From an uncultured Chroococcidiopsis sp. (GTDB lineage: Bacteria; Cyanobacteriota; Cyanobacteriia; Cyanobacteriales; Chroococcidiopsidaceae): 12,354 nucleotides of DNA. Positions within the stretch are counted from its first letter, which is position 1. Each line of letters opens with the position of its first letter. The stretch covers positions 1 to 12,354 of the forward strand of contig CAXTYC010000064.1 in assembly GCA_964248365.1 (NCBI GenBank), written 5' to 3'. The translations under genes were made by a program, and so were the position numbers. Of the stretch, positions 7,121-12,354 are shown piece by piece. The notes under the pieces are model-generated. The model searched no databases. It was given only the letters and a program-made list of their open reading frames with translations, and was not told the DNA's origin.

Positions 7121-7426
7121 TCAACTATTTAAATTTAAATCAGTAGCATTACCGAATCTACTAATCTGAATGCTCCACTCTCGTATATTTTTCGTTTGGC
7201 GTTGAGCAAGAGTAGGGTCAGCTATGTGCGCTTGCTTTAGCGCTTCTGAACGAAGTTTTCTGGTTTCTGCCGATTGAACGTAAATAGGATGAGCAATGCC
7301 ATATTCTTTCATCCTTCTTACAAGGGTACTTCTAGAAATATCAAGAATGCCTGCTGTTTCTGTTATTGTTTTTGAGAAAAGCAGGCGTTCAATTTCTTGT
7401 TTAGTAATGTTGGTACAACGCTTCAT
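7121..7426 (-). CDS. Small HTH protein with NUMOD3-like motif; possibly a truncated endonuclease-type gene
   Basis: TITETAGILDISRSTLVRRMKEYGI (HTH) and QSAETRKLRSEALK (NUMOD3-like). Starts 46 bp after the rtcB stop on the same strand. No nuclease motif visible. Confidence 0.55.
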   Translation of the reverse strand: MKRCTNITKQEIERLLFSKTITETAGILDISRSTLVRRMKEYGIAHPIYVQSAETRKLRSEALKQAHIADPTLAQRQTKNIREWSIQISRFGNATDLNLNS

Positions 7427-7472: not shown

Positions 7473-8654
7473 TCAACCTTTCACGCAAATAACTTGTTTC
7501 AAAGTAGCAACTACCTCTACAAGATCTGTTTGTTGACAAATAACTTCTTCTATCGGCTTATAAGCCCCAGGAATTTCATCCAAAACACCGCTATCTTTGC
7601 GACATTCTACCCCTTTTGTTTGCTCAATCAAATCATCGAGCGAGAAGTGATTTTTTGCCTTATTTCGAGACATCAAACGCCCCGCACCGTGAGAGCAAGA
7701 GCAGTAACTTTCAACATTACCTTTACCCTTAATAATGAAAGATTTTGCACCCATTGATCCAGGTATAATACCGTAATCTTCTGTACGCGCTCTTACTGCA
7801 CCTTTACGAGTAACATACACATCCTCGCCGAAATGCACTTCTTTTTCGGCATAGTTATGATGGCAGTTTACCTCTAATAAAGGCTTAAATGGCTTACCAC
7901 CAGCAAGATGCTTTTCCATTACCCGCTTAAAACGAGCCATCATTACATCTCGATTAAAACGCGCATAGTCTTGCGCCCATTGTAAATCGCGCCAGTAAGC
8001 AGCAAATTCAGGTGTTCCAGCTACGAAGTAGGCTAAGTCGGGATCGGGTAAACGATTTTCTACCAGCTTTGCCAATTCCCTAGCTGTACCAATATGGCAC
8101 TGAGCTAGCATATTACCAATATGGCGGGAACCAGAGTGTAGCATTAACCAAACTTGGTTTTCGGTATCGATACAAACTTCTAGGAAATGATTTCCTCCAC
8201 CTAGAGAACCCATTTGATTCATTGCTTTGCTTTCCAAGCGTTTTACCCCTGGATGCAAATCTTTGAAATCATACCAACGCTGCCAATTTGTTACAGATTT
8301 TTCAATGTTTTTGTTTTCACTGAATCCGACTGGAATAGTGGCTTCAATGTCAAGACGAATTTGCTTTAGTTTACCTTCAAGTTGATCGGCGACAAATGGC
8401 GTTTTAATCGCACCCATGCCGCAACCAATATCTACACCGATCGCAGCTGGGATAATAGCATCGCGGGTGGCAATTACCGATCCTACTAATGCTCCTTTGC
8501 CTAAATGGACATCTGGCATTAACGCTACGTGCTTGAAAACAAATGGCAGCGAAGCTACATTTTTTGCCATCTTGATTTCTTCAAAACCAAGGGCATGATT
8601 CGCCCAAGTAAGTACAGGCGAGCGCGTTGAAATTTCTAGTTTTTCGTATGGCAT
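7473..8654 (-). CDS. rtcB: RtcB family RNA ligase (3'-phosphate/5'-OH)
   Basis: MPDVHLGKG, GVDIGCG, GSLGGGNHF, HSGSR, NCHHNY, RKGA, IIPGSMG, SHGAGR, DEIPGAYK motifs. No intein. Confidence 0.97.
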   Translation of the reverse strand: MPYEKLEISTRSPVLTWANHALGFEEIKMAKNVASLPFVFKHVALMPDVHLGKGALVGSVIATRDAIIPAAIGVDIGCGMGAIKTPFVADQLEGKLKQIRLDIEATIPVGFSENKNIEKSVTNWQRWYDFKDLHPGVKRLESKAMNQMGSLGGGNHFLEVCIDTENQVWLMLHSGSRHIGNMLAQCHIGTARELAKLVENRLPDPDLAYFVAGTPEFAAYWRDLQWAQDYARFNRDVMMARFKRVMEKHLAGGKPFKPLLEVNCHHNYAEKEVHFGEDVYVTRKGAVRARTEDYGIIPGSMGAKSFIIKGKGNVESYCSCSHGAGRLMSRNKAKNHFSLDDLIEQTKGVECRKDSGVLDEIPGAYKPIEEVICQQTDLVEVVATLKQVICVKG

Positions 8655-8694
8655 AACTTTATACTTTTGACATAACGCAAGCTTATACTTCCCC

Positions 8695-8913
8695 TGGAAA
8701 AAACGACTTAAAAATACAGCCAGCCCTCTTCACAAAAACTCTCCCACGCGCCCGATAAATCCTAATACAGGGAAAAAGGAGACTTTAAAAATAGTGCGGT
8801 CCGTCAAACCAGATACCCTAGAAGACCAACAGATAAGCCAATACACAAACCGCACTATTTTTATGCGTCAGGTGTAAGGCTGGCTGTATTTTTAGAGTTA
8901 CATCGGATTCCCC
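8695..8913. mobile_element. Hairpin mini-element (copy 1, outer) in the rtcB upstream region, containing nested copy 2
   Basis: Flanked by direct repeat TTCCCC (8689-8694, 8908-8913). Arms TAAAAATACAGCCAGCC (8709-8725) and GGCTGGCTGTATTTTTA (8878-8894). Right flank GAGTTACATCGGATTCCC recurs at 12180-12197. Mobility is inferred. Confidence 0.65.
8773..8879. mobile_element. Hairpin mini-element (copy 2) nested in copy 1
   Basis: GG-N13-TAAAAATAGTGCGGT (8786-8800), 48-nt loop, ACCGCACTATTTTTA (8849-8863)-N14-GG. Perfect 15-bp stem. Confidence 0.65.
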
Positions 8914-8950
8914 AGGAGGATGCAAGCTTAACTTACACCAGTTCATTCCT

Positions 8951-9199: not shown

Positions 9200-9227
9200 A
9201 AATCTAAAATCTAAAATCTAAAATCTA
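9200..9227. repeat. STRR-type heptamer tandem repeat (AAATCTA)x4
   Basis: Four exact copies seen directly. Confidence 0.85.
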
Positions 9228-9245
9228 AAATTGTTTTAAACTCCT

Positions 9246-10929: not shown

Positions 10930-11002
10930 GGGGAATTAGCTCAGTTGGTAGAGCGCTGCGATCGCACCGCAGAGGTCAGGGATTCGAGTTCCCTATTCTC
11001 CA
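10930..11002 (+). tRNA. tRNA-Ala(CGC)
   Basis: Acceptor GGGGAAT/ATTCTCC with G3:U70 and discriminator A. D arm GCTCAGTTGGTAGAGC. Anticodon arm CTGCG-ATCGCAC-CGCAG. T arm AGGGA-TTCGAGT-TCCCT. No encoded CCA. Confidence 0.97.
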
Positions 11003-11004
11003 TT

Positions 11005-11160
11005 TGTCATTAAATAATTATTGTCAGTTTTAAAGAATTCTTGTCCAATTTGAGCAGATTAAGGGACACAAGTGACGTATTTTCCTGACTTTCAGCAATT
11101 TTCTCGGTTTTAAAGAATTCTTGTCCAGAGTTGAAACTCTTTTTAAAGAATTCTTGTCCA
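11005..11160 (+). mobile_element. Tn7-like (type V-K CAST-type) transposon end with four TnsB-binding-site repeats; element extends to the right
   Basis: TGT at 11005, then TAAATAATTATTGTC (11011-11025) and three exact copies of TTTTAAAGAATTCTTGTCCA (11028, 11108, 11141). Starts 2 nt after the tRNA. Confidence 0.85.
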
Positions 11161-11367: not shown

Positions 11368-11681
11368 CTAAGTATTACAGTTGTAGATTGTTAAGAATAA
11401 GATGAGATCGCTTTTGATAGTGGTAGTACTGTGCCCATGCTTGATGTTCGCGTCGCCATCACGACTCTTGCAAAACTAGCTCAATTCTCCAAACTGCTGG
11501 AAACAGTAATTTGCACAACCACTGTCGCATTTCTGGCACGCAAAGCGCGGATAATAGACCTCGTGCCGCTTTGAATGATGCCATTGGACGAGGCGGTACT
11601 AGAGGATTGGTTGTTTGGTTTTTTTGGGTATTGATGATTGGCTCAACGTGATAGCAGGAACTCTTAAATAAATGTCAGACC

Positions 11682-11830
11682 AGAGAGGAAACTTTAAAAA
11701 TGAAGGCAACCTTGTGTTGAGTTATCTGTGAGCGTCTAGGGCGATTTATATTGAAGGTTGCCTTCATGCGCGACGTTTGAGGGGGAAGCTTCCCCCTCAA
11801 AGCTCGCTTTTTTATGCGTCATTTGTTACC
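11682..11830. mobile_element. Hairpin mini-element (copy 3), loop inverted relative to copy 2, right arm interrupted by a palindrome
   Basis: CC-N13-TAAAAATGAAGGCAACCTT ... AAGGTTGCCTTCAT [insert] TTTTTTA-N14-CC. Flanks are 10/13 and 11/14 identical to those of copy 2. Confidence 0.6.
11768..11807. repeat. Small palindromic insertion (dispersed-repeat-like)
   Basis: Perfect 26-nt palindrome TTTGAGGGGGAAGCTTCCCCCTCAAA (11776-11801), flanked by GCGA/TCGC. Confidence 0.7.
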
Positions 11831-11867
11831 CGTCAACACCAGACAACCCATACTACACAACAGATCC

Positions 11868-12197
11868 AGGGTTTTCCGTCTTAAAAATAGAGCTTGGAAT
11901 TGGCAACAAAAAAATAAATCCGGCTTCAAACAACACAAATAACTCATCCTACCAACAAACTACTCAAAAAAGCCTGATTTATTTTTTCTAGCTTTACCTC
12001 CCGTGCCGTCAAAATCGATCCCCTGTAATACTGACAGCTAACCCAATACACGGTATCCGATATATCCCCTAAAAATGAAGACAGCCTTCAAAAACGATTC
12101 CTCGTTACACCAACAGATCACCCTAATACAGAGACCGCTTCATTTTTAGAAGAAGAAACTGTGGCTGGCTCTATTTTTAGAGGTACATCGGATTCCC
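11868..12197. mobile_element. Hairpin mini-element (copy 4, outer) containing nested copies 5 (~11909-11987) and 6 (12054-12164)
   Basis: CC-N14-TAAAAATAGAGC (11882-11893) and GCTCTATTTTTA (12168-12179)-GAGGTACATCGGATT-CCC. Inner stems 11909-11926/11970-11987 (17/18 paired) and 12069-12080/12138-12149 (12 bp perfect). Confidence 0.62.
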
Positions 12198-12218
12198 ACC
12201 AATACACGGAAAACATTG

Positions 12219-12354
12219 GTTGGGTCGAAGGGGGCTATTATGCCCCGCAGCTCCCATGCGCGAATTGGACGTGCAAGTTTCCCCGCATCCATCTCCCGAT
12301 GTTCTAATACCAAGTTGCGGTCTAAGAAGATATGCTTAGATGAGGAAAAAAAGT
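12219..12354 (-). mobile_element. Group II intron 3' end (domains V and VI), probably degenerate; continues beyond the window
   Basis: Minus strand GAGATGGATGCGGGGAAACTTGCACGTCCAATTC (12295-12262), a 34-nt domain V with GAAA loop and AC bulge. Then a domain VI hairpin ending CGACCCAAC, with A at -7 from an AC terminus. Confidence 0.85.

Follow-up and report, generated by a model that had tools for sequence, protein, structure and literature searches.

The small dispersed repeats of Nostoc, reportedly described by Elhai and colleagues in 2008, are said to be cyanobacterial sequences of 21-27 nt that nest within themselves and carry compensatory changes in their stems. Elsewhere among small or enzyme-dependent elements, IS607 inserts at (G)GG without duplication and bears helically phased repeats 20-60 bp inside one end (PMC6188088), and ssr9 of ISPpu9 is a non-coding module moved by an IS110 enzyme (PMC12288879). 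A review of MITEs has Nezha only as a reference and does not contain the word 'nested' (PMC10969869).

The window considered here, i.e. the whole stretch of DNA that was analysed (12,354 nt), is the complete contig C64 of G000, a 5.58-Mb assembly in 102 contigs, and contains seven hairpin units in two nests. They belong to what we regard as a real, mobile superfamily of MITEs, apparently undescribed, with unusual end diversity and deep nesting. Our preferred reading, to which we assign a probability of roughly one half, is that this new superfamily carries degenerate ISAzo13-type repeats and would be moved in trans by DDE transposases.

The genes of the window include an RtcB ligase, a methyltransferase and a tRNA, and the frequent HIP1 octamer marks the contig as cyanobacterial. 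No gene for a mobility enzyme is among them, in agreement with the preliminary description of this DNA, which had noticed no candidate recombinase. The top NCBIfam match of the RtcB-family ligase is an intein-containing model, yet the gene has no intein; a 101-aa ORF without an NCBIfam match follows it, the two together occupying 7121-7426 and 7473-8654 on the minus strand. Three 27-nt direct repeats (11021-11160) lie just 3' of the tRNA (10930-11002). A short heptamer tandem repeat at 9200-9235, of a kind typical of heterocyst-forming and related cyanobacteria, reaches very high depth in metagenome contigs.

The hairpin units and their nests

All six units of the preliminary description were recovered in place together with their arm pairs; the seventh is the outer host of nest 2, which encloses that nest (Table 1). 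Its right arm is decayed and, in addition, cut by the 3' end of a group II intron that the preliminary description had missed. Its end matches that of an intact copy at G000:C30:37203. The subtype 1 unit in its loop has a close sister at G000:C27:63560. The covariance model described below matches the inner unit of nest 1, a copy in its own seed, at 8785-8864 (E 4.5e-11), and the subtype 2 unit, a copy outside the seed, with an E of 2.1e-4; the ends of this latter unit are uncertain by 1-2 nt.

Table 1. Hairpin units and associated elements in the two nests of the window
Feature	Position	Strand	Basis or remark
Subtype 1 unit, host of nest 1, CC junctions	8694..8911	+	Arms 8709-8725 / 8878-8894; profile score
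Subtype 3 unit in nest 1, GG on both sides	8773..8879	+	Inserted at the host's loop/arm border
Outer host of nest 2, subtype 4, preceded by TA (11652-11653)	11654..12217	+	Left arm 11666-11681
Subtype 3 unit at the left arm/loop border of the outer host	11681..11830	+	56.9 bits once 11768-11807 is removed
GC-rich palindrome of another kind, 40 nt	11768..11807	.	Sits in the right arm of the subtype 3 unit 11681-11830
Subtype 1 unit in the loop of the outer host, carrying two inserts	11867..12196	+	Profile score after de-nesting
Subtype 2 unit in the left arm of the subtype 1 unit 11867-12196	11895..12004	+	Arms 11908-11926 / 11970-11987
Reversed subtype 1 unit where loop and right arm of 11867-12196 meet	12054..12164	-	Copy in model seed
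Group II intron 3' end, running off the contig	12218..12354	-	D5/D6 at 12219-12297; Rfam RF00029, 43.7 bits, above the gathering score

It had been claimed that in silico removal of inner copies restores their hosts, and scores against the family profile bear this out: the host of nest 1 rises from 14.9 to 36.7 bits when its insert is removed, and the subtype 1 host in nest 2 from 27.5 to 52.3 bits when both of its inserts are. The outer host has no prior profile score as such and reaches 24.9 bits over part of the model once de-nested. One of the proposed cuts, 11682-11830, leaves one C too many in comparison with intact copies, whereas 11681-11830 fits. The CC or GG flanks attributed to the units hold for two of the subtypes, but not for the outer host, which follows TA, nor for the subtype 2 unit, which has no clear duplication. 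GC-rich palindromic elements of 30-60 nt occur in the arms or loops of units at L268, L270, L279, L444 and L448 as well as in the window, and are probably other small mobile repeats. Apparent half-units at L268, L270, L273 and L279 are whole units with small inserts.

How large is the family in G000? An arm scan gave 48 hairpins, 46 of which seeded a profile (two doubtful ones were left out); the profile search returned 109 merged matches, 88 of them at E<0.05, against 0 in the reversed genome, and the arm scan alone scored 77 in G000 versus 1 in the control. We estimate that there are ~90-140 units; a wider catalogue holds 141 entries, some of them probably redundant. A neighbour lies within 250 nt of 43 of these 141 units, compared with 6.8 (maximum 20 in 2000 trials) when units are placed at random on the same contigs, so that the suggested preference for other family members as targets is borne out as preferential nesting, even with solitary units making up 75 of the 86 clusters. 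A ~2-kb nest at G000:C41:28300-30260, with at least 15 units by eye, is deeper than those of the window, and further nests lie on C58, C40, C7, C24, C28 and C22.

The units are non-coding, 100-116 nt long and dispersed in 88-141 copies. Each has an end segment of 12-17 nt on either side; between these come paired A-run/T-run arms, continued by a perfect stem of 8-12 bp, and a spacer of 44 nt that is conserved and holds two short boxes ~20 nt apart. Seen as terminal inverted repeats, they have perfect inner arms and only partly complementary outer 12-17 nt. Spacer and arms are common to all subtypes, which thus present one central hairpin module with differing ends and junctions (CC, TA, TWA or none), and the CC/GG core once thought to be universal is not. 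Among 16 simple copies of subtype 1, whose target is T-T-C-C-C-A-like, CC stands on the left in 13 and on the right in 15. Subtype 3 junctions, judged by eye, are CC in three copies and GG in one; those of subtype 4, likewise by eye, are TA/TA in 17 of 18 copies and GA/GA in the other, and this subtype has the same 13-nt register as the subtype found in Nostocales (see below). Subtype 2 makes no duplication and often occupies one fixed position in the arms of other units. A tree of 64 cores clusters by subtype, with mixing; having few columns and some mislabelled ends, it was not used to order events. Two aberrant copies were also seen, one on C26 (minus strand, near 49138) in which subtype 1 ends are joined and the whole hairpin is gone, and another with collapsed arms at C50:19012.

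Mobility and distribution

A paralogous empty site was found for 5 of the 86 clusters (two IS1 genes, two intron RT genes and one intergenic site), one copy of the 2-nt repeat being kept at four of these loci and no duplication being present at the fifth. A unit in a Tn554-like recombinase gene adds a restored reading frame that implies an empty state, consistent with the retention of one CC; this gene, which also has a stop, is the second of a three-gene cluster at G000:C12:4598-8482 comprising two tyrosine recombinases and a third gene. Because empty alleles exist at five loci in paralogous genes, the units are mobile, and together with their patchy spread this upholds the initial view of them as non-autonomous mobile units, which break genes in soil- and rock-dwelling cyanobacteria. 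It is scarcely credible that they are instead fixed regulatory hairpins or terminators spread by ordinary recombination: although long stems flanked by A- and T-runs could act as two-way terminators, the units interrupt ORFs precisely and were not found in most relatives searched, and the empty alleles refute a terminator origin while leaving room for a secondary terminator effect.

The junctions of subtype 1 deserve separate consideration, for they are not simple duplications. All 16 copies have C immediately to the left of the crossover, and over about 7 nt the consensus of the targets is similar to the donor junction. Two sites could be compared with a reading frame or a paralog; in both, the C-run of the donor is found on the non-target side, its register having slipped one base to the left at one site and to the right at the other. 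These features hint at a circular, core-retaining route. The main alternative to the preferred reading, possible though unlikely, would accordingly have subtypes 1, 2 and 3 move as circles by means of a conservative recombinase of the IS607-type serine, IS110-type DEDD or tyrosine class, with crossover in a core of 1-3 nt and the donor copy kept, and would regard the ISAzo13-like subtype as a side branch that captured transposon ends. The (G)GG rule and phased repeats of IS607 (PMC6188088), beside the two spacer boxes, and the precedent of ssr9 (PMC12288879) lend it some plausibility; against it, non-consensus repeats present on both sides of units (GG, GA, TTG, CAA) point to true duplications. 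No circle junctions were seen in four read runs, for which assembled contigs only were searched, and contig joints across 8656-8947 and 11681-11841 are not evidence, other organisms or copies being their possible source.

Beyond G000, a covariance model built from 29 of its copies matches 3 of 27 other genomes of the taxonomic family, with 8, 16 and 2 copies. A single, weak match in an order-level scan (G049) was left out of the count, and a phylum scan of 150 other genomes, with tight filters and 30 candidates scored per genome, gave one match, a 51-nt palindrome taken as false. The model missed a unit upstream of an integrase in G003 (L259, on C5), which means that the filtered scans understate the extent of the family. 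A loop pattern revealed units in Spirirestis, Tolypothrix, Brasilonema, Hassallia and Stigonema, for which the covariance model gives 16, 2, 18, 5 and 13 copies, respectively, at E up to 0.01, and two further copies were read on Nostoc plasmid DNA, neither of which is annotated as a repeat. Since the model made from G000 alone finds this Nostocales subtype at E down to 1.8e-7, we place it in one family with the units of G000. The distribution is patchy, extending to three of the 27 taxonomic-family genomes and five Nostocales genomes.

Other searches added little. Exact and degenerate end patterns gave 0, 1 (non-cyanobacterial) and 0 matches in genome contigs, 0 in viral contigs and 0 in the metagenome; a 17-mer search gave 120 matches, mostly due to chance, with 4 real units among them; and BLAST with one copy found no real match in 40 relatives or in PLSDB. 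Named records from pattern searches, which may duplicate genomes already counted, were not counted again. A check against Rfam 15 found no match on the units at E up to 1, and no description of the hairpin family was found in the literature searched, although cyanobacterial MITE catalogues such as PMC11602168 and PMC3542288, or ISfinder, may hold some subtypes. The family thus appears to be an undescribed one of land-dwelling cyanobacteria.

Stem covariation and group II introns

Are the stems free to vary because the units are recognized by their fold, at a single-stranded DNA or RNA stage, as was originally proposed? In an alignment whose copies had been picked for matching arms, 93.8% of stem cells are paired, both sides being changed in 110 and one side in 7 of 464 cells, and covariation exceeds that of all 500 shuffles and all slid controls. 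The covariation on which the proposal was founded is hence real. However, stem changes are of the Watson-Crick type only, with G-T pairs nearly absent, both strands of the units fold with similar energy, and the spacer of the 16 subtype 1 copies lies in the two orientations at 8:8, i.e. the loop is inverted in 8 of them. Template switching is reported to perfect stems and to invert loops (PMC8794818), and because it explains stems, strand symmetry and loop inversion without selection on the fold, covariation does not show recognition by fold. The best remaining hint of a role for structure is a mini-stem of 3-5 bp between the end segments of each subtype, whose letters are subtype-specific yet complementary.

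On these grounds we consider it improbable that a folded single strand, free in its stem sequence, serves as the substrate of an HUH enzyme (RAYT- or IS200-like) or of an integron-like integrase. Such a substrate would agree with the covariation and the mini-stems and would have a parallel in REPINs, ~100-nt hairpin mobile units (PMC3116915); but several simple, intact copies have mismatched or unpaired inner arms, and the likeness of the two strands and the inverted loops are unlike attC, as is the tendency of units to interrupt genes rather than to flank cassettes. The enzymes fare no better: the best integron integrase score in G000 is 49.7 bits against a cut-off of 265, strong Y1 matches look like ordinary IS200-type copies, and two weak, possibly RAYT-like genes lie 12.5 and 24 kb from any catalogued unit, none being flanked by units.

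A different connection with RNA is suggested by the group II intron of the window, which has the outer host of nest 2 as its 3' exon. In G000, a unit forms the 3' exon, cut near the stem base, at 4 of 17 intron 3' ends examined (16 Rfam matches and one truncated), and one intron 5' end follows a unit end. Units make up 0.27% of the genome, for which ~0.05 unit-exon intron ends would be expected, a contrast that is inflated by accessory regions richer in both. One type of group II intron with a hairpin in its 3' exon is seen in the window and at G000:C68:8331, C5:881, C72:~8778 and C28:518; class C introns, by contrast, insert after hairpins. Could the units, then, be moved through RNA by intron reverse transcriptases or be by-products of introns? 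Despite the excess of unit exons, this is very improbable: neither the ends nor the domains of an intron are present in the units, whose junctions bear repeats of 2-3 bp and which interrupt RT genes themselves, and the link reads as one of introns using units as targets.

Candidate enzymes and comparison with known systems

The lead towards ISAzo13 originated from L268, where a unit abuts an ISAzo13 element whose terminal repeat resembles the unit end. Five complete ISAzo13 (PF07592) elements have repeats of ~24 nt and TWA duplications in 5 of 5 cases, as found with a repeat finder that demanded a direct repeat; in four of the five, the layout is G, 12-13 nt and an A-rich box. Against these repeats, unit ends of the Nostocales subtype score a mean of 7.78 of 12, compared with 6.12 for shuffled flanks (6.93 at the top of 200 shuffles), and 12 of 41 ends reach at least 9 of 12, versus 1.4 after shuffling. 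A script recovered the same 3-mer on both flanks of Nostocales units at 16 of 24 sites; following a 1-nt correction of register by reading at 5 more, the count is 21 of 24. Copies with identical cores carry TTA or TAA (TTG on both sides in one case, CAA in another), and it follows that the 3-bp repeat derives from the target. A search of 8 other unit-bearing genomes found ISAzo13 genes in 7 of them (G014 has none), but such genes also occur in 8 taxonomic-family genomes without a covariance-model match (10 of 27 are ISAzo13-bearing). The Nostocales subtype, as its ends and flanks suggest, is very likely an ISAzo13 MITE, and we hold with high confidence that it is moved by a DDE enzyme.

For the window's own subtypes, the same reading would be an extension by homology that we make tentatively, at rather less than even odds. 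The 165 unit ends of G000 do not match the five ISAzo13 repeats (5.96, versus 6.19 when shuffled), nor any repeated contig-end IS terminus in the assembly. No ISAzo13 gene is assembled in G000, where multi-copy IS have collapsed out of the 102 contigs and only contig-end stubs survive. The ends of C72, C84 and C102 belong to one such collapsed multi-copy element, which has a terminus resembling the ISAzo13 repeats of G021 and G017 and a gene absent from the assembly. ISAzo13 is the only partner family with positive evidence, and this concerns a subtype from outside G000.

If the preferred reading is correct, a unit end together with its A-run would constitute a degenerate terminal inverted repeat of ~24 nt, bound in trans by a transposase of the ISAzo13 type or a related DDE enzyme. 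Each subtype would follow a different transposase variant, which would set the junction at 0-3 bp. Nesting could arise if resident ends attract the enzyme, which then places a further copy beside them, as IS30 does (PMC9333248), and the variable but perfect stems and inverted loops would stem from template switching at the hairpin rather than from selection on the fold. The units would then offer ISAzo13 transposases, enzymes with a mechanism that has, to our knowledge, gone untested, a minimal substrate of natural origin; they would also be a clear case of MITE diversification by change of ends. A warning would follow as well: repeats can acquire perfectly compensating stems by template switching, and such stems are no proof of a structured RNA.

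A broader scheme, which we think doubtful, sees one hairpin chassis whose ends have been swapped repeatedly and for which unrelated enzymes now provide movement: the TWA subtype would depend on an ISAzo13 DDE transposase, the CC and no-duplication subtypes on a core-retaining recombinase. Subtypes would target fixed positions in the arms of one another, an intron lineage would home to the stem base, and the spacer would be a shared landing site for an enzyme or host factor, the whole forming an ecosystem of hyperparasites. Were it true, two recombination chemistries would meet in a single non-coding element, and the enzyme that serves the CC subtype would provide a new tool for integration with low specificity.

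Which recombinase might serve the CC subtype or the putative circles? The catalytic domain of IS110 enzymes is absent from G000, which has one C-terminal fragment only; by eye, no ends of a similar kind are apparent at the five IS110 loci of three further unit-bearing genomes; and a comparison of the loop with its own target, as for an IS110-like guide, gave p=0.33 (16 copies). The earlier analogies with IS1111 elements and attC sites fail the tests run, i.e. no DEDD domain, no integron integrase and strands that are alike. IS607 TnpA is missing from the unit-rich genomes G000 and G200, no end matches were found to 25 IS607 loci, and a GG/CC core of the IS607 type fits subtype 1, but not the TA or TWA subtypes. 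A XerC-like integrase, three of whose four paralogs lie within 1.2 kb of a unit, would speak for movement as circles, yet it occurs in 22 of 28 taxonomic-family genomes, whereas clean adjoining arm pairs are confined to G000 and one G003 locus (53 loci scanned), and its adjacency in unit-rich genomes does not exceed what the 4-fold higher density of units on contigs under 100 kb would lead one to expect. At G000:C46:16942-16999, a right half-unit directly follows the stop of a XerC-like integrase, the left half being absent from the assembly. Resolvases failed as partners or were unspecific, the Tn554-like trio on C12 is a victim of unit insertion, and Pfam searches of 84 ORFs beside 17 units of other genomes revealed no common neighbour. 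The enzyme that moves the window's copies was not found among the partner families tested in G000.

How, then, do the units compare with systems already described? They are far longer than the small dispersed repeats that Nostoc is said to carry, and the palindromic inserts inside units may be such repeats. ISAzo13 elements and their MITEs share with the Nostocales subtype ends that start with G, 13 nt to an A-rich box, a repeat of ~24 nt and TWA duplication; by contrast, a unit's ends are less alike than the repeat pair of an ISAzo13 element, inner arms are perfect yet vary from copy to copy, and the subtypes of G000 have CC, TA or no duplication. IS30 and IS911 resemble the units in their 2-bp duplication, and a second class of targets beside resident ends offers a model for nesting, but IS30 has terminal repeats of 26 bp and end-to-end junctions, whereas units land inside arms and loops (PMC9333248). 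With IS607, the units share the (G)GG target, as far as subtype 1 is concerned, and phased short repeats, although IS607 is without inverted repeats (PMC6188088). Sub-terminal inverted repeats, a dinucleotide at both junctions and a non-coding module moved in trans recall IS110/IS1111 elements and ssr9 (PMC12288879), from which the units are set apart by the lack of a DEDD domain and of a guide match between loop and target, and by low target specificity. Like REPINs, they are hairpin mobile units of ~100 nt in many copies (PMC3116915); unlike REPINs and RAYT, their arms are not conserved in sequence, many copies lie inside genes and no RAYT is flanked by units. Finally, the units are short, non-coding, multi-copy and gene-disrupting and have inverted arms, as prokaryotic MITEs do, but they differ from the MITEs covered in the review in combining at least 8 end types on one module with loop inversion and nests of at least 15 units (PMC10969869).
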